Part shown: in pieces, positions 41,808 to 54,753 of the stretch
How positions within the stretch are numbered: position 1 is the stretch's first letter
Layout: every line of letters begins with the position of its first letter
NCBI GenBank assembly: GCA_963825765.1
Contig: CAWGUU010000018.1
Location: forward strand, 16,401 to 80,400
Reading direction: 5' to 3'
From: an uncultured Acidimicrobiia bacterium
GTDB taxonomy: Bacteria; Actinomycetota; Acidimicrobiia; Acidimicrobiales; AC-14
DNA: 64,000 bases
Translations under genes and position numbers: made by a program
Notes under the pieces: model-generated
What the model was told of the DNA's origin: nothing
The model's database searches: none
Seen by the model: only the letters and a program-made list of their open reading frames with translations

Positions 41808-42595
41808 CTGCCCGGGGGCAGCCCGCCCGGCGGCCGGTGGGGGGCGGGTGGTAACGCCCGACGATGGCGCGCACGGTCACAGTCGGGCAGGCCTTCTGCG
41901 CCGCCACCCGCTGCTATCCGCTCTCCTCGCGCTGACCCTGGGACTGGTCGGCATCTGGGGCGTCCGGCTCTGGCATCTCCAGCAAGAGGTCGATCGCTAC
42001 CGCCGCTACTGGTCGCGGGCCAGGGGCGAGCCCGGTGGGATCCTCTACGTGCGCCCTCGGGGATTCGACCGCTCAGGGGATCGGTGCCAGTGGACCGGAC
42101 AAGGGCTACGTCGGGTTGATCGCAGACCGACTCCGGGCGGCGAAGGGCCGCCCGGTGCAGGTCATCAACCTCAGCCGCACGGGGGCACGTGTCGACGACG
42201 TCGTCGCAGACCAGCTGCCGAAGCTGGCCGGGCTGACCCCCGACGTCGTCACCGTCGCGGTTGGCGGCAACGACATCCGGCACTACGACGCCGTCCGCTT
42301 CCGCTCCGACGTCGATGCGTTGATCGCAGGGTTGCCGGCCGGCGCCGTGGTGGGCGACGTCCCGTGGTTCATGCACGGGGGCACGGGGCGAGACTCCGCC
42401 GAGGCCGCCGCATATGTGACCCAGGTCGCCGAATCCCGAGGGCTGCCGGTCGCAGGGCTCCACGAAGCGATGCAGCGGAGGGGTTGGGCGAGCATGCTCA
42501 CCGACTTCTCCGCGGACTGGTTCCATCCGAGCAACCGGGGCTATCGGATCTGGGCTGACGCATTCTGGGAGGCGGTGAACAAGCCCCGGCGCTGA
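41791..42595 (+). CDS. SGNH/GDSL hydrolase with N-terminal TM, single-nt indel near 42050
   Basis: ALGDSTAQG (block I), VGGNDI (block III), DWFHPS (block V); N-terminal TM segment in adjacent frame. Confidence 0.6.
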
Positions 42596-42932
42596 CGGCG
42601 CTGAGACTCCCGCCGTCGCAGTTTCCGTGGCGGGCCTCAAGACATCCTGATCCGGGCGACCCAACTGCCTGGTCGGCGCGGTCCGAGGCCCAGGAGCGCG
42701 CCTCGAGGAGCCGGTACTGAGGGGTGGGCCGCCGACTGCCGCGTGGGAACCCGGCGCTTAACCCGTGGGGACGGTGACCAATGCATCGGGAAAGTCCGGG
42801 TCAACCCGTACATGTGAACCGCCCACGCACGCGCACTGCGTCCCGCTGCGGCCCGTAGGGGCGACGGCGGATCTGGCGGAGTGAGATATTCGAGGAAGGA
42901 GCTATTCGCGTCGGGAGCGTCGCCTGGGTGCT

Positions 42933-43433
42933 GTGACACCCGCCGGTTCCTGCTTGGACGAGCCCCTGCTGGCGAGGCTGGGTCTTCGAGCCGGGGAGGT
43001 CGCTGCCCTCGAGCTGGGTGACGTCGACTGGCGGGCCGGGGAGATCCTGGTGCGGGGCAAGGCACGACGCCAGGACCACCTCCCGCTTCCCGTCGAGGTG
43101 GGCGAGGCGCTGGTGGCCTACCTGCGCGACGGTCGTCCGTGCTGCCAGTGGCGGCAGCTGATCGTCACCCTCTACGCGCCCTTCCGGCCGATCCATCCCA
43201 GTTCCATCACCAACGTCGTCTATCGCGCCTGCCGGCGAGCCGGAATTGCCCGGGTTGGCGGTCACCGTCTGCGCCATGCCCTGGCCACCGAGATGCTGCG
43301 CCAGGGCGGGGACCTGATCGAGATCGCCCAGGTGCTGCGTCATTCCGACCTGGGGACCACCTCCGGCTACGCCAAAGTCGACCGGGTCGCGCTGCTCATA
43401 GTGGCCCAGCCCTGGCCGGGGACGGAGCGATGA
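42933..43433 (+). pseudogene. tyrosine recombinase fragment (catalytic C-terminal domain only; RitA-like, 5'-truncated)
   Basis: [44 protein letters not shown] (R..HxxR..Y); stops in all frames upstream. Confidence 0.6.
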
Positions 43434-44359
43434 GCAGCTTCGCCGACCACGCCCAGGACTACCTGCGACTCCGACGGGCCCTGGGCCACGAACTGGCTGA
43501 GGCCACCCGGCTGCTCCCCCGCTTCGTGGCCCACCTGGACTCGGTCGGGGCCACGACCATCACCGTCGAGATCGCCCTGGCCTGGGTGCGGCGTCCCGAC
43601 GCGGACCCGACGAGCTCCGTGTGGTTCCGGCGCATGACCGTGGTCCGGGGCTTCGCCCGCCACATGTCGGGCATCGACGCCGCCACCGAGGTCCCGCCGC
43701 TCGGGTTGGTGAGCTTCCGGCGGCACTGGCGGCCGCCGTTCATCTACTCCCGCGACGACGTCGTGGCGTTGATGGCCGAGGTCCCCCGGCACACCCCCTC
43801 ACCCCTGCGGGCGGCGACCTTCCAGACCATGATCGGACTGTTGGCGGCCACCGGCATGCGGGTGGGCGAGGCCATCGGCCTGGCCCGTCGCGACGTGGAC
43901 GCGGTCGGGGGAGTGATCACCGTCAGGGCCTCCAAGTTCAACAAGTCCCGGGAGCTGCCACTGGAGCCGACCACGGTGCACGCGCTCGGGGCCTATGCCG
44001 AGGTCCGAGACCGGTTCGTGTCGGCGCCCACCAGCCCCACTTTCTTCCTCTCCCGGGCCGGGACCCCGGTGATCTACACCGACTTCGGAACCAAGTCCCG
44101 CATCCTGGTCGATGCCGCCGGGGTGGGGGCCGACTCGCCGGTGCGGCCCCGTGTCCATGACCTGCGCCATTCGTTCGCGGTCGCCACCCTGGTGCGCTGG
44201 TATCGGGCGGGCGAAGACGTGGGCGCCCTGCTGCCGAGGCTGTCGACCTACTTGGGCCACCTGTCGCCCGGCTACACGTACTGGTATCTGTCGGCTGCCC
44301 CCGAGCTGCTGGCCCTGGCCGCCGGCCGCGTGGAGGCGGCGGAGGCGTCCCGACCGTGA
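43430..44359 (+). CDS. tyrosine recombinase (RitB-like), 309 aa
   Basis: MRVGEAIGLARRDVD, HDLRHSFAVA, LGHLSPGYTYWYL. Confidence 0.75.
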   Translation: MSSFADHAQDYLRLRRALGHELAEATRLLPRFVAHLDSVGATTITVEIALAWVRRPDADPTSSVWFRRMTVVRGFARHMSGIDAATEVPPLGLVSFRRHWRPPFIYSRDDVVALMAEVPRHTPSPLRAATFQTMIGLLAATGMRVGEAIGLARRDVDAVGGVITVRASKFNKSRELPLEPTTVHALGAYAEVRDRFVSAPTSPTFFLSRAGTPVIYTDFGTKSRILVDAAGVGADSPVRPRVHDLRHSFAVATLVRWYRAGEDVGALLPRLSTYLGHLSPGYTYWYLSAAPELLALAAGRVEAAEASRP

Positions 44360-45344
44360 GCCTGCTCGCTCCCACCCTGCAGCTGTTCTTCACCGAGCGG
44401 CTGGCCAAGCAGCGCCAGGCCAGCCCGGCCACGGTGACCTCCTATCGCAACACCTTCCGGCTCCTGCTGCGCTTCGTGCAGGAGACCACCGGCAAGGCCC
44501 CCTCCACCCTGGATTGGGCCGACCTGGACGTCGAGGTGATCTCGGCCTTCCTGGACCACCTCGAGACCGACCGCCACAACAGCGCCCGCAGCCGCAACAC
44601 CCGCCTGGCCGCGCTTCGTTCGCTGTTCCGCTACGCCGCCCTCCGCCACCCAGAGCACGCCCAGCTCATCGCCCAGGTGCTGGCCATCCCCCAGAGCGCT
44701 ACGACAAGACCATCGTGGCGTTCCTCGAGCCCGAGGAGGTCGACGCCCTCTTGGCCGCTCCCGACCTGAGTTGGTGGGAGGGACGGCGCGACCGGGCGCT
44801 GATGGCCCTGGCCGTGCAGACCGGCCTGCGCCTCTCCGAGCTGACGGGGATCCGCTGCGGTGACATCGAGCTCGGCAACGGCGCCCACCTGCGCTGCACC
44901 GGCAAGGGTCGCAAGCAGCGCTGCGTCCCGCTGACGGCCTCGACCGTCGCCGTTCTCCGGGTTTGGCGTCGGGAGCGGGGTGGCCTGCGTGATGATCCGC
45001 TGTTCCCCACAAGAACCGGGCGGCGCCTCAGCGACGATGCCGTCGAGGCCAGGGTCGCGACCCACAAGGCGACGGCCACCACCCGCTGTCCGTCCTTGGC
45101 CACCAAGCGCCTGACGCCCCACGTCCTGCGCCACACCTGCGCCATGGTCCTGCTGCGAGCCGGGGTCGACGTCGCCGTCATCGCCCTCTGGCTCGGGCAC
45201 GCCGACATCCGCTCGACGCAGATCTACCTCCACGCCGACCTGAGCATCAAGGAACGAGCGCTCGCCCGCACCACGCCTGCGACCTCCAAGCCAGGGCGCT
45301 ACCGACCTCCCGACAGCTTGCTGGCGTTCCTCGAGAACCTGTGA
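44356..45344 (+). CDS. tyrosine recombinase (RitC-like), frameshifted in C5 run 44688..44692
   Basis: N-terminal SAM-like domain in one frame, then ...RYDKTIVAFLEPEEVDALL...LRLSELTGIRCGDIEL...HVLRHTCAM...IYLHAD in next frame. Confidence 0.7.
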
Positions 45345-45772: not shown

Positions 45773-46276
45773 CCACGACGTTCCGGACGCAGGTGCTCTA
45801 CCTCCCGCCGACGCCGCTCGGCCTGCTCCCCGGGCGATGGGCGGTCGAGCACCACTGCTCCCTCTGCCGGAGCAGGGTCGCTCCCGACGACCTCATCCGG
45901 CACGCACAGGATCACTCGGCCATGACCACCCAGGACGCAGGGCGCGACCGGGTTCCTTGACCACAGCGACGGCATCGTCCATCATCGCCAAGTCGGTGCT
46001 GGTGACCCCGGAAGTGGTCCCATGCCACTGGCGAAACGATGGTCCCATCGGGCTGGCGGGCGACATCACGGCGTCGAGCCCCCTCGTACAGGCGGTCACC
46101 CGGTCGTGTCCTCGACGCCGCCCGGACGGGGTTGGCCCGGACGAGGGGAAGACGTCGACGACATCCGCCGGGAGGTCGCCCTTCGTGAACGTGGGACAGG
46201 TCGGCCACCGGACGGCGCGCTCGCCGGCAGCTACAAGATGCCGACGGCTCGCTGCCGGTGGCGACTGGCCCGTTGC

Positions 46277-46513
46277 TCAGGCGACCCGGCGAGACGGCGT
46301 ATGGCCGCCACCGAGTTGGCGGGAGATCGACCTCTGCTGCTCCAGAGCGTGGTCGGACGTTCCTTTGGAGCGGTTCGGGTTCGGCATCACGTCGACGATG
46401 TCATCGCGAAGCCGACCTCCGGGATCAGGGTTGATACCCCCAGTATAAGAGCCTCCAACCTGCATGTGATGGGGACTCTGAGGGTCCTTCCGCGTTGCAT
46501 TTACCAGTGCCAT
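46277..46513 (-). CDS. hypothetical small protein in lower-GC region
   Basis: GGAGGTGA RBS 5 nt before ATG (MALVNATRKDP...); atypical codon usage; otherwise unsupported. Confidence 0.25.
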   Translation of the reverse strand: MALVNATRKDPQSPHHMQVGGSYTGGINPDPGGRLRDDIVDVMPNPNRSKGTSDHALEQQRSISRQLGGGHTPSRRVA

Positions 46514-47477
46514 GTGGATCACCTCCACTGTTCAACGAGGTTTCAAGGCACCGCTTACATTGTACTCCTCGGGGTGCAGTTTTCAACGAAAGATTCTTTT
46601 TTCGGCCTCGGCGATGGCACGCATCGAATTGCCAGTCCACTCCGCCCCCAGCATCCTCAGCCGGCGCCAAGGGGGTGAGTGTTCACGTACTATCGGAGAT
46701 GGGTTCTCCGCACAATCTGACTCTAGACATGGGACCTCTAGACATGGGACGAGGCCAATTGTTGTGCCGCCGATCCGAATATCTGCAGCACATACGACGT
46801 TCTCCTCCGGCGTCAGCAGCCGCTTGCGCCGCGCCGGCCCCTAACCCTCGGCCATGTGGAGCCTCCCTCTCGTCGGGCTCGGGCACCGTAGAAGATGCGG
46901 AGTGTTCAACCGCGGCTGCGAACACTGAGTCAAACGCAAACCACATCCGCGCGTTCGCTGACTTCAATCGGTGCGTCCCCTTTTCGGGTGGTGGACTGGT
47001 TCGCCCCCGCCACCGTCATCCGCCAGAGGGCGCAGGTGATGGATCAGGTCATCGAGGGGGGGACTTTGGTTGGCCACGGGTGGGGACGTTCGCATGGCCA
47101 CGGACAGGCGTCGCCCCTTCGGACGAGAGCCAGGGTCGGGCCCCGCTCAGTATTGAGCGATCGCCTGAATCAGGCCTGTATCTCTACCCTCCTCGACCGG
47201 GGGTCCCCTCGCCCCGAGAACTGCGGGACGGTGAGCGAGTCCAGGTCGCCCGAGCCAGTGACATAGGCGCGTCCGCCGCGGCTGACGACGGGCAGATCGA
47301 GGTGGCTGAAGCCGGCACCCGAGGGAGGATGGCAGTCCGAGTCCACGGCGGGCGGCCGTGGCCGGGTCGTGAGGCAGGTGGTGGTTCGGCCGACCGAGCG
47401 CGCCTCCCCGGCAAGGCGAGAACCGCGTGCCGCGCCGTCCGCCCACAAGAGTCGCTGACCGTGCCCCGGACATGACG

Positions 47478-48068
47478 TTAGGACCCGAGCGCGAGCTCGG
47501 CCTTGCTGAGCTGCTGGGCAGCCTCGGCCAGCACGTGACCGAGGAGCTCGGTGATGATCAGTACCATCCCGTGCCGGACGCTCGCGGGAAGCCAGTCGTC
47601 AACCGCGCGACCCTCCGCCACCCGGGCCAGGCGCTCGGACTCCGCCGCGAGCACGGAGATCATCTCGTCGGGATCCCAGCGGTGGTAGCCGGCGATCGGC
47701 TCGCTCAGATGGCAGCGCGTCTCGACGGGACGAACATCGCGGGACAGGCGCTCCAAGTGGTCGGCCGTTGCGTGGACGAGATCCCGGACGCATATGAGGC
47801 GTTCGATGGCGGTCGGGGACCCCGGGGCGTGCCGTCGGCAGCTTCGTTCCCTTCTGGTCCCGTCGATGAGCCGCTCGCCCAGCAGGTCCCGGAAGTCTTC
47901 GGGCAAGGAGCGGACGAGCTCGACGACGTTGCTCATGGCGACTCGGTCCGCCTCGAACGCGACCGAACCCTTCTCGCCCGCCGAGGGCGGCCAGAGGTTT
48001 TGACCGACCCACCAGCGCGGCGATCCAGCCGAAGCACCAGCCGTCCCCGGGGAGTGCTCGACGGTCAT
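47478..48068 (-). CDS. hypothetical protein, possibly DinB/MDMPI-like
   Basis: more protein-like than the fully overlapping plus-strand ORF; weak family resemblance only. Confidence 0.3.
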   Translation of the reverse strand: MTVEHSPGTAGASAGSPRWWVGQNLWPPSAGEKGSVAFEADRVAMSNVVELVRSLPEDFRDLLGERLIDGTRRERSCRRHAPGSPTAIERLICVRDLVHATADHLERLSRDVRPVETRCHLSEPIAGYHRWDPDEMISVLAAESERLARVAEGRAVDDWLPASVRHGMVLIITELLGHVLAEAAQQLSKAELALGS

Positions 48069-48364
48069 GGGTGGGCCGAGAGATCAACGACCGAGTCGCT
48101 CCCGCCGTACTCGTTCGGCTGGTAGCCGTCAAACGCCTCGTCGTTGAACCACCTGCCGCCCTCGGCCAGGTAGCGGAACGCGTAACGCCTCGCGGCCTCG
48201 ACGGTGACCGACGCCGTGCGCTGGTCGCGGTGCTTGCGCAGCGACGTGGCCGTGGGGTCCCATCCTGTTGAAATCTCCAACCACGGCGACCGGGCCGTCG
48301 ATCCCGTTCTCGCCCACGATGAACACCTTGACGTGGTCGCTGCCCCTTTTGGGCTCGCAGCGGA

Positions 48365-48877
48365 TCATGGCTCGTCTCGTTGGTCGGCGAGGTACCTATT
48401 GCTCCCGGCCGGGTGAGCGGAGATCGACCGCCGCTCTGCAGGGGTCCGCTCTCCGGCCGATGGAAGGGACCGTCCCCGAAACGGTGTGGAGCGTCCGGTG
48501 ACGCGGACAGCGGGGGCCAAGCCGGTCGCATCCAAGCCTCGGTGCACGGCATCGCAGGGGTCGGCGAGGATCAACTCGCCGCCCCGGGTGGAGGCCGAAG
48601 TTGCCGCGCCCCGGAAGACGGCCCAGCCACCCTCCTCCACCCGGGTCAGGTCTAGAAGATCGACCACGACCCTCAGGTTCCCTTGGTTCTCGATCAGGTC
48701 TTCCAGCACGTGTTCGAGCTGGGCACATCCGGAGGTGTCCAGCGTGCCGTGGACCGTCACGACCACGAGGCCAGGAGCGCGGCCGACGGAGAACCGGAAG
48801 GCCGACGGCGGGGTCGTGGGGGCTACTCGGGGGCTGGGCGGCGGGCGGTGTCCGTCGGACGGGGCCGCGGCCGACAT
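48365..48877 (-). CDS. STAS-domain protein (anti-sigma factor antagonist-like)
   Basis: LVVVTVHGTLDTSGCAQLEHVLEDLIENQGNLRVVVDLLDLTRVEEGGWAVF...; start/stop uncertain. Confidence 0.45.
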   Translation of the reverse strand: MSAAAPSDGHRPPPSPRVAPTTPPSAFRFSVGRAPGLVVVTVHGTLDTSGCAQLEHVLEDLIENQGNLRVVVDLLDLTRVEEGGWAVFRGAATSASTRGGELILADPCDAVHRGLDATGLAPAVRVTGRSTPFRGRSLPSAGERTPAERRSISAHPAGSNRYLADQRDEP

Positions 48878-49520
48878 CGAGTCGTGACTCACCTTCCCGG
48901 GACCCGCGCGGCCCGAGCTGCCAGTCCACGACGAAGTCGGATGCTTCAGCGGGCGCCACCTTGACGGCCAGGCGTGCCAGGTGGCCAGCCGGGATCGGGG
49001 CGCGCCGGCTGCGGGGCGCGGCTGCCACTCGGCACGAGGGCGACGGCTTGGGCGGAGCGGGCCTGTAACCCAGTTGTGTTGACATTCGCTTCCCTCCACG
49101 TCATGGCTGTGGAGGCCCGGCCCCAGCCAGGAAGAGCGGGGCCTCTCCGGCGACGAGCTGGTCAGCTCCTTCCGGGCGTCGGAACAGTTGTCTTCGCGAT
49201 GCGCGGCGCTGGCGCCACCACCCGTGGCGTAGCGGGCGGCAAACGCCGTTCGAGGCGACGACGCCGACGTGCTTCCGAGACGGCCCACATGGCGAGATGC
49301 ATCTGCCGATCGCCGCGCATTGGAACCACCCTTCCGTCCGCTGATCTGGATGCTGAAACTCGTTGCCGACGCGCCAACCCGATGCGTCCGCGACTCAGAC
49401 CTTTTCACTCAGAAGGGGCGGCCAGCTAGGCGGATGTCTACGGGAAACTGCTCAGTACGACTACGGGGGCGCCCGACACTCTTAGGCGACTCAACCCCAC
49501 TAGCACGCGGTGGCTACGGC

Positions 49521-50171
49521 CTACTGCTCTTGGGGAACGATGCCCCGGCGGACCGCGTAGATTGCGAGCTCGACGGGGGTCCGCAGGCCCAGCTTCTTCA
49601 TCGCATGCGCTCGGTGCGTCTCCACGGTCCGCCGACTGATGAACAACTGTGCGCCGATGGCGGCGTTCGTGTGGCCCTGCGCCACGAGTTGCAGGACCTC
49701 CCGCTCGCGGTCGGTGAGGGTGTCGTAGGGGTCGGGGGGTTCCCCGGCGCGGCGAGAGTACGCCTCCAGGGCACGCTCCGACAGCGGTGGGCTGAGGTAG
49801 CGGCGTCCGGCGGCCACTTCCCGGATGGCCCGTCCCAGCTCCGCCGCGTCCGCCTGCTTGAGGGCGTAGCCCGAAACGCCCCTTCGCAGTGCCTCGAGCA
49901 CGTAGGCCTCGCTCTGGTGCATGGACAAGATGAGAACGCGAGTCGCCGGCGAGCGCTCAGCCAGCTCCGGGGTGACGTCGAGGCCGCTCCTCGCACCCAT
50001 CATAAGATCGAGCACCACGACATCGGGATGGAGTTGGCCAGCCAGCGTGGCCACGTCATCGCCGTTATCGGCCTGGCCCACCACCTCGAAGTCGGGGTCG
50101 GAGTCCAGCAGGGCCCGGAGACCCTCTCGTACCACCGGGTGGTCGTCGGCGAGGACGAGCCTGAGTGTCAT
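49521..50171 (-). CDS. NarL/FixJ (LuxR)-family response regulator
   Basis: receiver LVLADDHPVVREGL...VVLDLMM + HTH REREVLQLVAQGHTNAAIGAQLFISRRTVETH. Confidence 0.9.
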   Translation of the reverse strand: MTLRLVLADDHPVVREGLRALLDSDPDFEVVGQADNGDDVATLAGQLHPDVVVLDLMMGARSGLDVTPELAERSPATRVLILSMHQSEAYVLEALRRGVSGYALKQADAAELGRAIREVAAGRRYLSPPLSERALEAYSRRAGEPPDPYDTLTDREREVLQLVAQGHTNAAIGAQLFISRRTVETHRAHAMKKLGLRTPVELAIYAVRRGIVPQEQ

Positions 50172-52813
50172 GGAATCACACTCGGACGCTCGCTAAGCGG
50201 AAACTGGGCGATCACCCAGGTGCCGCCGCCGAGTTCGGAGCGCAACCGAAACTGGCCCCCGGTCGCGCGGGCTCGCTCCTCCATCCCGACCAGGCCGCTG
50301 CTCTGCCCGGGCCGGAGGGCGTCAACCTCGAAGCCGACGCCTTCGTCGCTCACTTCGATGCGCAGTGAGTCTTCGCTCAGGGCACAGCCGACCGTGGCCA
50401 GGCTGACCCCGGCGTGGCGGGCGACGTTGGTGAGCCCCTCCTGCACGATCCGGAAGGCGGCCGTCTCGACCTCTGGCCGGAGGCGCCGGTCCAGCCCCGG
50501 AGCCTTGAAGGCCACCTCCACCCCCGTCTGGGCGGTATACCGCTCCACGAGCCACAGAAGGGCTGGTCGAAGGCCCAGGTCGTCGAGCATGGCGGGACGG
50601 AGGTCGAGGGAAAGATCCTGCACCCGGCGCAGGAGCTCGCCCACCAGGGCTCGCGCCAGGCCCAGTCGATCTGCCACCGCCTCCGGGGAAAGGCGCACGT
50701 GGTTCTCCAGCGCGAGCTTGAGACCAGTGAGAGTCTGGCCGATCTCGTCATGCAGCTCGTGGGCGATGCGCCGCCGCTCGCCCTCCTGAGCGTCCACCGC
50801 TGCCCTCGAGTGGGTCTCGAGGCGCTGGCGCAGCCGGCGCTCCTCGTCGTGGGCGGACCGAAGGGCCTTTTCCACCTCGGCGCGGCCGATCACCTCGGCC
50901 AGGGTGTTGGCGGCGGCATGGAGGAAGTGGGCGTCATCGACGTTGAAGCGTCGTCGCCTGCTCGCGTAAGCACCCAGAACCCCCCACGGAGCGGCCCGCC
51001 CCATGATGACGACACTCATCCCGCTCACCACCCCGTGGTCGACCAGCAGCGGCGGGGCCCCGAAGCGGGTCTCCCGGGCGAGGTCCTCCACCACCACTGG
51101 GGCGTCGCAGGCCAGGGTGAAGCCGGCCTGGGACCCCAGCCCGGCCGCGACCGTGGCCTGGCCCACCAGTCCCTCCTCCCACCCCACCCCCGCCCGCAGG
51201 AGCAAGACGTCATCTTCCGGCAGCAGCTCGAGGACCTCGGCGTACTCCACGTCGAGGGTGCGGGCGACGGCGTCGACGGCGGCATCCATAAGAGAAGAGA
51301 GATCGGGGTCGGCCAGCGCCCGGCGACCGAGCTCGGCCACGACAGCCTGCTGGTGGGCCCGAGTGGCGAGCTCGGCCTCGACCCGACCACGGGCTACGGC
51401 GTCGGCCACCACGTTGGCCACCGCCCGCAGGAAATGGATGTCGTCGAGTCCGAAGCTCCGGTGGCGCGTGGTGTCGGCGCCGAGCACGCCGTAGGGCTCG
51501 TCATCGCTGCGGATGAGTACGGTCATGCCGGCGACCACCCCGTGGTCGACCAGCAGCGGCGGGGCCCCGAAGCGGGTCTCCCGGGCGAGGTCCTCCACCA
51601 CCACTGGGGCGTCGCAGGCCAGGGTGAAGCCGGCCTGGGACCCCAGCCCGGCCGCGACCGTGGCCTGGCCCACCAGTCCCTCCTCCCACCCCACCCCCGC
51701 CCGCAGGAGCAAGACGTCATCTTCCGGCAGCAGCTCGAGGACCTCGGCGTACTCCACGTCGAGGGTGCGGGCGACGGCGTCGACGGCGGCATCCATAAGA
51801 GAAGAGAGATCGGGGTCGGCCAGCGCCCGGCGACCGAGCTCGGCCACGACAGCCTGCTGGTGGGCCCGAGTGGCGAGCTCGGCCTCGACCCGACCACGGG
51901 CTACGGCGTCGGCCACCACGTTGGCCACCGCCCGCAGGAAATGGATGTCGTCGAGTCCGAAGCTCCGGTGGCGCGTGGTGTCGGCGCCGAGCACGCCGTA
52001 GGGCTCGTCATCGCTGCGGATGAGTACGGTCATGCCGGCGACCACCCCGTGGTCGACCAGCAGCGGCGGGGCCCCGAAGCGGGTCTCCCGGGCGAGGTCC
52101 TCCACCACCACTGGGGCGTCGCAGGCCAGGGTGAAGCCGGCCTGGGACCCCAGCCCGGCCGCGACCGTGGCCTGGCCCACCAGTCCCTCCTCCCACCCCA
52201 CCCCCGCCCGCAGGAGCAAGACGTCATCTTCCGGCAGCAGCTCGAGGACCTCGGCGTACTCCACGTCGAGGGTGCGGGCGACGGCGTCGACGGCGGCATC
52301 CATAAGAGAAGAGAGATCGGGGTCGGCCAGCGCCCGGCGACCGACCTCGGCCACGACAGCCTGCTGGTGGGCCCGAGTGGCGAGCTCGGCCTTGACCCGC
52401 TTGAGCTCGATGAGATCTCGGAATGTTGCGACGATCTCGGCCGGACCCTCGCCGGCGACGAGCTGAGCGCTGACCTCTACCGGGACGCGATGCCCATCCC
52501 TGTGTACAAGGTCGCACTCGTAGTGTCGTGGCACCTCCTCGCCGGCGAGGCGGCGCCTGGCCCGGTCGGCGATGAGATCCCGGGAGTCTGGGGTGACGAG
52601 ATCGGCGAACGGTCTCACTGTCAAGACCTCCTTGACGGAATAGCCGATCAGAGAGCCGAACGCCTCGTTGACAAGCAGCGCGCGCTCGGGATTGCCGACA
52701 ACCAGGCCCACCCCCAGATCGCCCAACACCTGAGGAAGACTCCTGTACCAAGGGCGATCCTCCTCAGGCGGCCCGGCCATTCCGGTCATGGCCAGCTCGG
52801 GTGCCATGGGCAC
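50168..52813 (-). CDS. sensor histidine kinase, PAS-GAF-GAF-GAF-HisKA_3-HATPase_c
   Basis: HELHDEIGQTLTGL H-box (HisKA_3), GLTNVARHA/ELGGGTWV ATPase; tandem near-identical 169-aa GAF units; stop overlaps response regulator start. Confidence 0.85.
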   Translation of the reverse strand: MPMAPELAMTGMAGPPEEDRPWYRSLPQVLGDLGVGLVVGNPERALLVNEAFGSLIGYSVKEVLTVRPFADLVTPDSRDLIADRARRRLAGEEVPRHYECDLVHRDGHRVPVEVSAQLVAGEGPAEIVATFRDLIELKRVKAELATRAHQQAVVAEVGRRALADPDLSSLMDAAVDAVARTLDVEYAEVLELLPEDDVLLLRAGVGWEEGLVGQATVAAGLGSQAGFTLACDAPVVVEDLARETRFGAPPLLVDHGVVAGMTVLIRSDDEPYGVLGADTTRHRSFGLDDIHFLRAVANVVADAVARGRVEAELATRAHQQAVVAELGRRALADPDLSSLMDAAVDAVARTLDVEYAEVLELLPEDDVLLLRAGVGWEEGLVGQATVAAGLGSQAGFTLACDAPVVVEDLARETRFGAPPLLVDHGVVAGMTVLIRSDDEPYGVLGADTTRHRSFGLDDIHFLRAVANVVADAVARGRVEAELATRAHQQAVVAELGRRALADPDLSSLMDAAVDAVARTLDVEYAEVLELLPEDDVLLLRAGVGWEEGLVGQATVAAGLGSQAGFTLACDAPVVVEDLARETRFGAPPLLVDHGVVSGMSVVIMGRAAPWGVLGAYASRRRRFNVDDAHFLHAAANTLAEVIGRAEVEKALRSAHDEERRLRQRLETHSRAAVDAQEGERRRIAHELHDEIGQTLTGLKLALENHVRLSPEAVADRLGLARALVGELLRRVQDLSLDLRPAMLDDLGLRPALLWLVERYTAQTGVEVAFKAPGLDRRLRPEVETAAFRIVQEGLTNVARHAGVSLATVGCALSEDSLRIEVSDEGVGFEVDALRPGQSSGLVGMEERARATGGQFRLRSELGGGTWVIAQFPLSERPSVIP
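51030..52340 (-). repeat. 507-bp tandem repeats inside the kinase gene: two perfect copies (51030..51536, 51537..52043) plus about 290 bp of a third, then diverged copies
   Basis: identical nucleotide strings read directly; matching identical shadow ORFs at 507-bp spacing in the six-frame track. Confidence 0.85.
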
Positions 52814-52860
52814 ACGCTAGACCTTCCCGTAGCGGAGGGGACGGGGAGTCGGCGATCACC

Positions 52861-53892
52861 CTATGGAAACACCGGGCGCCCGCTACCGTGTCGCAGCGAG
52901 TGGGCCGTGAGCTCGTCGGGCAGCCCGGCCGCCCTGCGGTAGAGCGCGAAACGCGCGCTGAGATGGTGGACGGACATCCGGGCGCCACGCTCCGTGAGCC
53001 ACATGGCCGGGTGGCAGTCCTGTCCGTAGGTGGGGCGGACAACGGTGAGGTACTCGTCGACCACCTCGACCGCCCAAGGCATCACCGTGGCCACATTGCG
53101 GCGGCGTGGCGGGCCACCCCGCATGGCCTTGCCGTAGCGAACGAGCAGCATCCCGTAACGGCCGAGCTCGGGTGCGGCCGCGTTGGTGGAAAAATCCCCG
53201 ATGTCGAGCATCACCGCCTCTCGCCGGCGCAGTCCCCAGGCGTAGATCACCTTGAAGAGGACGGCGTCTCGGAAGGCGGGGAGCCACCCCTTGCGGCCCA
53301 GGCTCCGAATCTTCGCCACCCGCTCGGCGGCGTACTCGTAGAAGGCGATGAGCTCCTCCCGGCTGAACGGGCGTCGCCCGGGACCTCCTTCGTAGTCGGC
53401 CACGTGGTCGGCGGTGTTCCACTCGTGGCATATCTGGACCGGGTGCTCGCCGAAGCGCTCCTCGCATTCTGGGCCCCATCGGTAGCGGGCGTCGGTGACG
53501 TAGGACATGAACAGCCCGAGGACGATCTGGTAGTTGCGGACCGTCGAATGGGCTCGCTTGTCCGACATCAACGAGCTGCTCCACGCCTCGACGTCCTCAG
53601 GGCCCCACCTCCACGGGTAGTCGTTCGTGAAGCGCTGGGACCGCCGGACATGCCCTCGCGGCCGCCGATCGTGGTTGCGGTCAGCAGCCGGCTCTGCTGC
53701 TGGGTGCGCCACCCGGCGAATGGCATCGAACACAGCAGTCTCGGGGTGAAGGAGAATGGCTCCTCGCACGAGGGCCAGATGCGCGGCTCCGGGCGTCTCG
53801 GAACGCTGTCCCATCCACCCCTCCGGCCAGGTCGCTAGATGCAACCGCGTTGCATCCAACGCAACCTTGGAGGAAAAGGCCAGGTAGATCAA
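52861..53892 (-). pseudogene. tyrosine-type site-specific integrase, 3'-truncated (ends 8 codons after HxxR box; catalytic Tyr region absent)
   Basis: RRREAVMLDIGDF and LTAHSLRHG motifs; no continuation in any frame; truncation point abuts kinase start. Confidence 0.6.
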
Positions 53893-54543: not shown

Positions 54544-54616
54544 GCCCCCTTAGCTCAGTCGGTAGAGCACAGCCATGGTAAGGCTGGTGTCGTCGGTTCG
54601 ATTCCGACAGGGGGCT
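54544..54616 (+). tRNA. tRNA-Thr (GGT)
   Basis: acceptor gccccct/agggggc, anticodon loop atGGTaa, T-loop ggttcgattcc. Confidence 0.9.
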
Positions 54617-54677
54617 CCGCGGGGTGCTTGTAAGCTGGGTCGCCCGGCGCGACGGCCGGCAGTCAAGGCTCAACCTT

Positions 54678-54753
54678 GGCGGCGTAGCTCAGTTGGCAGA
54701 GCACTCGGCTCATAATCGAGGAGTCGGCGGTTCGAGTCCGCCCGCCGCCACCA
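54678..54753 (+). tRNA. tRNA-Met (CAT), elongator-type
   Basis: acceptor ggcggcg/cgccgcc + CCA, anticodon loop ctCATaa; lacks initiator GGG/CCC anticodon-stem signature. Confidence 0.85.

Follow-up and report, generated by a model that had tools for sequence, protein, structure and literature searches.

A sensor kinase gene with three GAF domains, probably a recent mosaic of two old GAF types, in an uncultured Acidimicrobiia bacterium

The kinase-regulator operon

We have analysed a 64,000-nucleotide (nt) stretch of DNA from an uncultured Acidimicrobiia bacterium (assembly GCA_963825765.1, contig CAWGUU010000018.1). This whole stretch is called the window here, and positions are counted from its first letter. 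On its reverse strand (-) lies a two-gene operon, which encodes a sensor histidine kinase with three consecutive GAF domains and a response regulator. The three GAF domains are encoded by tandem 507-nt units, two of them nearly identical throughout and the third sharing only its first part. The gene is probably a mosaic that originated very recently from two old GAF types, by gene conversion together with unequal crossover. The features of the operon are listed below (aa, amino acids; HMM, hidden Markov model).

49521..50171 (-): response regulator of the NarL/LuxR family, 216 aa, with a REC domain at residues 6-116 (Pfam PF00072, 86.1 bits) and a GerE helix-turn-helix domain at 150-206 (PF00196, 72.2 bits)
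50168..50171 (-): ATGA stop/start overlap of kinase and regulator, a sign of translational coupling, read directly ('...att cca tga cac tca gg')
50168..52813 (-): sensor histidine kinase, 881 aa, predicted soluble, with PAS, three GAF, HisKA_3 and HATPase_c domains (list of open reading frames (ORFs), Pfam)
52412..52750 (-): PAS domain, about residues 22-134 (Pfam PAS_9, PAS and PAS_3 at 42-134; NCBIfam sensory_box, 50 bits; modelled PAS fold at 22-133)
51881..52387 (-): GAF unit 1, residues 143-311, composed of x1 and the A-type a2 (unit alignment, HMM typing of the C-part)
51374..51880 (-): GAF unit 2, residues 312-480, composed of x1 and a2, the extra module relative to two-GAF orthologues
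50867..51373 (-): GAF unit 3, residues 481-649, composed of x1 and the B-type b2 (unit alignment, HMM typing of the C-part)
50591..50779 (-): HisKA_3 dimerisation and phospho-acceptor domain (Pfam PF07730, 40.7 bits against a cutoff of 24)
50192..50467 (-): HATPase_c catalytic domain (PF02518, 36.3 bits against a cutoff of 26.4)
51027..52392 (-): DNA repeat array, 2.69 head-to-tail copies of the 507-nt unit, in frame (lag self-comparison)

A preliminary description, made from the sequence alone, had given the domain order of the kinase as PAS-GAF-GAF-GAF-HisKA_3-HATPase, and both the Pfam matches (PAS_9 at residues 42-134, GAF in three stretches with 126 bits, HisKA_3 at 679-741, HATPase_c at 783-874) and an AlphaFold2 model agree with it. 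It had also described a LuxR-type regulator overlapping by ATGA, as the directly read junction and the REC and GerE domains have confirmed. The kinase starts at GTG 52813, with GGGAAGG at 52828-52822, 8 nt upstream of the start. This start retains the N-terminal motif W-Y-R-S-L-P-x-V-L, which is common to the orthologues.

The full set of catalytic motifs is intact in the kinase. The H-box HELHDE begins at residue 685, with His688 as the presumed phospho-acceptor, and the HATPase_c domain shows the N box TNVARHA at 795, the G1 box DEGVGF at 823 and the G2 box GLVGMEERA at 840; its sequence matches in the PDB are the catalytic domains of VraS, DevS, DosT and DesK. In the regulator, Asp9, Asp10, Asp55, Ser83 and Lys105 are present at the motif positions. 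No 19-mer of the kinase exceeds 1.42 on the Kyte-Doolittle scale, that is, a transmembrane segment is absent, and the predicted architecture is that of a cytoplasmic enzyme. A scan for promoters and terminators gave no useful result.

The AlphaFold2 model of the kinase was built with 50 homologues and has a mean predicted local distance difference test score of 88.5. It places the PAS domain at residues 22-133, a helix at 135-163 and the GAF cores at 167-279, 336-448 and 505-617. The GAF cores are linked by 46-residue helices, and a single continuous helix (625-702) leads from the last GAF into the DHp/phospho-acceptor helix, followed by the ATP-binding domain. According to this model, the 169-aa unit is one structural module, a GAF core with half of the adjoining linker helix on either side. 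The preliminary description had already equated each 507-bp unit with one 169-aa GAF domain, which holds. The junction between x1 and a2 (unit residue 116/117) lies inside the GAF domain, just ahead of its fifth beta strand. An 842-aa ORF on the opposite strand (50414..52942) shows the same repeat period and was taken for a mirror ORF, given the GC-rich coding DNA.

The repeat array

In a direct lag comparison at 507 nt, the sequence 51027..51837 equals 51534..52344 exactly, over 811 nt, and chance cannot explain such a match. A single mismatch (51838/52345) is followed by 47 further identical nt, while at a lag of 1014 the exact run is 304 nt. The perfect periodicity thus covers 51027-52344, i.e., 1318 nt or 2.60 units, and extends to 1366 nt or 2.69 units if the one mismatch is allowed. 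Units 1 and 2 are identical at 506 of 507 nt, the sole difference being GTC (Val157) in unit 1 versus CTC (Leu) in units 2 and 3. Between units 2 and 3, the first part is identical at 348 of 351 nt, and the identity then falls abruptly to 87 of 156 nt (56%). The identity of unit 3 persists to nt 347 of the unit, and the sliding identity profile and the boundary sequences show that the array is sharply bounded at both ends. In other words, the first 117 residues (x1) are common to all three units, and the last 52 residues are type-specific.

These measurements refine what had been described before. Of the two units said to be 100% identical, an 811-nt exact match is real, but the complete units differ at the single site above. 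The third copy is indeed partly identical, though not for about 290 bp but for 304 nt exactly, or 352 nt with one mismatch. As to the diverged flanking copies, the last 52 codons of the third GAF are diverged, but no diverged copy stands upstream of the array.

A BLASTN search with one unit has found no further copies in the window besides these three. Tandem Repeats Finder reported no array, because its longest period is 500 and the period here is 507 nt. The GC profile is flat over the operon (0.67-0.735), and a foreign origin is thus not indicated by base composition.

Relatives of the kinase and two old GAF types

The identical protein occurs on two contigs, one from NCBI and one from ENA. 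No other homologue exceeds about 70% identity to the kinase over its whole length, and the closest relatives stand at 55-70%; two proteins, P0028 and P0029, show 75-77% identity over the kinase-core half only. The relatives come from metagenome-assembled genomes of Acidimicrobiales/Actinomycetota, and the cluster names of the homologues and of EF-Tu place the source of the window in the same group. Scans of genome and metagenome contigs with the kinase have recovered neither a close relative nor the immediate ancestor.

The preliminary description had proposed to compare the GAF copy number among orthologues. Among the 50 closest homologues, the GAF period is 169 aa throughout (168 in one case), most have one GAF and 17 have two, three being confined to the query. 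As the relatives already have one or two, just one GAF of the window gene is new. No other family member was found with units that are identical at DNA level. In the wider superfamily, P0138 has three diverged GAF units of the same subtype in a row on a HisKA kinase, so three such GAFs in a row are not unique there.

For typing, the units were split at the identity boundary into an N-part of 117 residues and a C-part of 52 residues. In the tree, the C-parts form two old and separate clades, A being the first and B the second GAF of two-GAF proteins. The C-part of units 1 and 2 scores 98.1 bits with the A-HMM versus 72.1 bits with the B-HMM (+26 bits, A type), while that of unit 3 scores 72.1 versus 93.8 bits (-22 bits, B type).

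In control orthologues, the DNA identity between the two units is 71-77% for the N-part and 37-59% for the C-part, peaking at 91% in the linker. The 100% identity of the N-parts in the window gene is therefore a derived state. At the amino-acid level, the units within two-GAF relatives are 50-72% identical in the N-part and 41-60% in the C-part. P0013 (72% in the N-part versus 41% in the C-part), whose N-parts are sisters in the tree, shows an older, partly decayed homogenisation of the N-part alone, and such exchange has therefore probably occurred more than once in the family.

The single-GAF members (P0017-P0049, n=31) include 21 of A type, 9 of B type and one unclear, and the types of their N-part and C-part are always concordant. 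Since the single-GAF forms are thus pure A or pure B, it seems that either two single-GAF lineages were united in the two-GAF architecture or each single-GAF form goes back to the clean loss of one or the other module. Two other ideas were weighed on the same data. Single-GAF relatives as x1-b2 deletion products are not supported, in view of the constant concordance of N- and C-part types, and a B-type C-part kept as the sole coupler to the kinase helix was rejected, since 21 of 31 single-GAF relatives have a pure A-type GAF directly before HisKA_3.

A second contig with the same array

The second contig, ENA ERZ25039530 contig_25583 (31 kb; L007), aligns with 42684-62723 of the window with 198 differences in 20,040 positions (99.0% identical), and is thus not simply the window's own record copied. 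It carries the identical three-unit array, with zero differences over 49436-52807. This stretch of 3,371 nt, which coincides exactly with the kinase-regulator operon, is the longest difference-free one between the two contigs; the next longest is 1,177 nt. The differences are unevenly distributed: their density is about 2-11 per kb near the operon and climbs to as much as about 30 per kb at 44 kb and at 60-62 kb. The identical operon block may be due to a recent sweep of the allele or its recent transfer, or else to a consensus of uneven quality.

The ENA contig has an extra G right behind the kinase start codon (the equivalent of window 52807), probably a long-read indel error. Because of this extra G, the corresponding database protein P0001 is shorter (853 aa), with a later start that loses the W-Y-R-S-L-P-x-V-L motif. 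Likewise, a 1-nt deletion in tuf (window 55096), by which EF-Tu is called at 282 aa instead of 395, is probably a long-read indel error as well. These indels and the Flye-style name 'contig_N' suggest that the ENA contig is a long-read assembly. As long reads span the 1.4-kb array, the second contig argues against an inflation of the copy number by assembly.

Origin of the three-unit mosaic

Based on the above analyses, we consider it likely that the window gene is a mosaic of the form x1-a2 / x1-a2 / x1-b2, derived from an a1-a2 / b1-b2 ancestor by gene conversion and unequal crossover, both very recent and both within an intact kinase. One duplication yields exactly two perfect copies, and the mosaic with its 2.6-2.7 perfect copies therefore needs two events. 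The preliminary description had taken the perfect identity as a sign of very recent in-frame recombination, which the analysis bears out, and had offered duplication or gene conversion as its cause. Both processes are retained here, but not as alternatives, since the 2.69 perfect copies and the mosaic need both.

In detail, the inherited state would have been a pair of old and diverged GAF modules like those of the two-GAF relatives, namely A (a1-a2) and B (b1-b2). A gene conversion of about 300-350 nt would have made the first 117 codons identical among modules, and an unequal crossover of misaligned modules would have added one whole 507-nt unit in frame. Two routes are conceivable. In Route A, conversion would come first and create 352-nt direct repeats 507 nt apart, between which a homologous unequal crossover would add the x1-a2 unit. 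In Route B, a homeologous unequal crossover near codon 117 would give a1-a2 / b1-a2 / b1-b2, and a later conversion would overwrite a1. The Val/Leu site, 47 nt inside unit 1, is compatible with both routes. It may be the end of the conversion tract, the 47 nt upstream lying in the most conserved linker, or it could be a later point mutation. As the period is exactly one module, the product would be a normally folded kinase with an extra GAF inserted into the helical spine between the PAS domain and the phospho-acceptor helix, and it should still work.

A simpler account, in which one GAF domain was duplicated in tandem just once and gene conversion played no part, would explain why the two complete units differ at just 1 of 507 nt. 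However, duplicating a 507-nt segment once leaves exactly 2.0 perfect copies and not the 2.60-2.69 observed, the next 156 nt after the perfect part are old B-type sequence at 56% identity, and the A-type and B-type C-parts predate the window gene, as its relatives indicate. We regard this account as extremely improbable. An assembly artefact is a different matter, which the preliminary description had named as what would refute it. The true genome might hold two modules, x1-a2 / x1-b2, with the assembler taking the x1-a2 loop once too often. A perfect 352-nt repeat at 507-nt spacing does form a loop in a short-read assembly graph, where the copy number is then set by coverage heuristics, and the three units are known from one protein cluster alone, on two contigs. 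But the same three units stand in a separate assembly record that is 99.0% identical over 20 kb and whose indel errors and name suggest long reads, which would easily span 1.4 kb; assemblers also collapse such repeats more often than they expand them. The artefact is thus unlikely, and even if only two units were real, a recent conversion would still be required to make x1 identical.

The array may also be seen as a recombinationally active module of variable length, with the GAF number switching between 1, 2, 3 and more within populations under selection. The family does range from one to three copies, with a strict period of 169 aa. RecA finds good substrates in perfect repeats of 352 nt or more, an older homogenisation confined to the N-part is seen in P0013, and no other difference-free stretch between the two contigs is as long as the operon. 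Yet both available records have three units, with no variation within populations seen in these two, the single-GAF relatives are pure A or pure B and not x1-b2 deletion chimeras, and no other member carries DNA-identical units; we find population-level switching very unlikely. A related proposal treats the GAF string as a recombination-prone cassette, in which the N-terminal two-thirds of neighbouring modules are repeatedly homogenised through gene conversion, the last 52 residues stay type-specific and the number is altered by unequal crossover, with the three-GAF allele having spread recently between related strains. Such a spread, if true, would account for the operon being the only long difference-free block (3,371 nt) between contigs that differ by ~1%. 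We regard this proposal as unlikely. If it is right, it would mean copy-number tuning of a cytoplasmic sensor, a counterpart of the variable-length surface proteins.

Several points weigh against the preferred reading of conversion plus unequal crossover. Nothing above ~70% identity (~77% over the kinase-core half) has been found to display the immediate ancestral state. The shared N-part x1 scores nearly equally on both models (194.6 bits with the A-HMM versus 195.9 bits with the B-HMM), its diagnostic columns are three of B type, one of A type and one of neither, and its neighbour-joining placement is weak; x1 may therefore be of either type, the overwritten ancestral half may be a1 or b1, and the events may have run in either order. 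The copy number rests on assembled contigs that may not be independent, e.g., the same sample assembled or polished differently, and small differences that truly exist between the repeat copies can be lost in short-read polishing. Besides, the ligand, signal and regulon of the kinase-regulator pair are entirely inferred.

Genomic neighbourhood

The operon is flanked by remnants of mobile elements, with a GNAT gene, tRNA-Thr (54544-54618), tRNA-Met (54678-54753) and tuf adjacent. A tyrosine-recombinase ORF at 52861-53892 (-) ends 47 nt before the kinase start. It stops right after the HSLRH motif and matches the XerC model only to about 243/295, so the catalytic-tyrosine region is missing. On the other side, three consecutive tyrosine-recombinase ORFs (42933..43433, 43139..44359 and 44112..45344, all on the forward strand; Phage_integrase E values of 2e-22, 3e-18 and 2e-34) occupy 42400-45344 and resemble a 'recombinase in trio' element in their arrangement. 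In the ENA contig, an IstB/IS21 fragment lies beside the recombinase trio, and the synteny with the window breaks at about 42684. Between the trio and the STAS region described below, the GC content dips to 0.59-0.64 at 46000-47000 (background 0.68-0.72), and the ORFs in this dip have no family match.

A 62-65-aa ORF, a STAS (anti-sigma-factor antagonist) gene and a 101-aa ORF without family match are found at 48062-49085 (-), and in the P0006 locus at L004 3058-3677 and 8284-8589. The window and the ENA contig differ by several indels in 48062-49085, so the gene models there, including that of the STAS gene at about 48365-48877, are uncertain. STAS genes, the small ORF and the 101-aa ORF recur beside orthologous kinase-regulator pairs, and every orthologous locus has a 216-aa regulator overlapping the kinase by 4 nt. 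The P0006 locus further holds two DUF1918/Rv2632c-like genes (L004 2086-2553 and 3989-4447). Directly upstream of P0028, a REC-GAF-HisKA_3 protein, lie genes for a STAS protein, an RsbW-like kinase, a SpoIIE phosphatase and a hybrid kinase (L006 180-3799). There are hints here that the kinase family is linked to partner-switching stress modules.

Predicted function

The kinase-regulator pair is best described as a two-component system of the HisKA_3/NarL class, belonging by its sequence to an uncharacterised actinobacterial PAS-GAF(n) subfamily. It reaches none of the NCBIfam equivalog cutoffs (MctS/MctR, NarX/NarL, UhpB/UhpA, LiaS and similar), the best being MctS for the kinase (135.8 bits versus 700) and MctR for the regulator (173.4 versus 300). 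Neither sequence nor structural comparison allows a GAF ligand to be inferred. The haem-binding His149 of DevS (in FPPYHPPM) aligns with a Leu of APPLLVDHG in a weak HMMER match to the GAF-A structure 4ynr (E 6e-4), with a family-conserved His three residues downstream, and the best structural neighbours of the GAF are those of PtsP, fRMsr and YebR, not DevS.

Our working model of signal relay builds on what is established for helix-coupled PAS/GAF kinases. The PAS and GAF domains would sense a small-molecule or redox signal and pass it along the helical spine, and the relayed signal would set the autophosphorylation of His688 and phosphotransfer to Asp55 of the regulator, leading to control of transcription. 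From the recurring neighbours, a regulon of stress or STAS-type partner-switching genes is a reasonable guess. Through the conversion, one ancestral N-part, which holds most of a binding pocket, would have been lost, and the kinase may sense fewer distinct signals via more copies of the same pocket. The preliminary description had suggested an effect on ligand stoichiometry or cooperativity, which the extra GAF might have.

Comparison with known systems

Sensor kinases with several GAF or PAS domains are common, and internal duplication is assumed to be the way in which these arrays grow. To our knowledge, nearly all known arrays are old and diverged, and the steps of growth must therefore be inferred. 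In the window gene the intermediates are readable, namely sharp junctions inside a domain, a mosaic of two types and a period of one structural module. The natural series of one-, two- and three-GAF kinases offers a way of asking how helix-coupled sensor modules add up. The generating process itself is textbook and this is not a new kind of system; the current understanding of two-component signalling is unchanged.

The nearest counterparts are the PAS-GAF(1-2) kinases P0006 (GCA_030155045.1), P0009 and P0011, which are 60-70% identical to the window kinase and share its N-terminal motif, PAS domain, 169-aa GAF period and kinase core. Their loci also resemble the window, with a 216-aa regulator, the 4-nt overlap and often STAS and small ORFs nearby. 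The difference lies in the GAFs: these kinases have either one unit or two diverged ones, as against three in the window gene, whose N-parts are DNA-identical and of which two whole units agree at 506/507 nt. Among characterised systems, DevS (DosS)/DosT with DevR (DosR) of Mycobacterium resembles the window pair in layout, with GAF-A (haem), GAF-B, HisKA_3 and HATPase_c plus a NarL-family regulator, but the window kinase has an N-terminal PAS domain and three GAFs and so departs from the PAS-less order of DevS/DosT. The tandem GAFs of PDE2A (1mc0) and CyaB2 (1ykd), which are connected by long helices, and the phytochromes are alike in architecture only, with 10-13% identity and template modelling scores of 0.25-0.29 by Foldseek. 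The kinase type in the window is HisKA_3, unlike the PAS-GAF-PHY-kinase of phytochromes; no PHY domain is matched in Pfam at E <= 0.01, so that the phytochrome PAS-GAF-PHY core is lacking, and no cyclic nucleotide or bilin signature is established.

In terms of repeat identity, the closest parallel is found among the 'Periscope' surface proteins, in which whole folded domains are repeated at near-100% DNA identity, which is reported to enable intragenic recombination and the gain or loss of repeats (PMC8201768). The window gene likewise has long whole-domain tandem repeats with near-identical DNA. Most known cases of identical whole-domain repeats are surface proteins (PMC8201768), and neighbouring homologous domains are usually divergent (PMC4660218), hence a cytoplasmic kinase with two identical neighbouring domains is uncommon, and as an enzyme of this kind it has a bearing on protein folding. 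While the 'Periscope' proteins form surface stalks with many repeats and vary in length between strains, the window gene encodes a cytoplasmic enzyme with one extra domain and has three units in both records.

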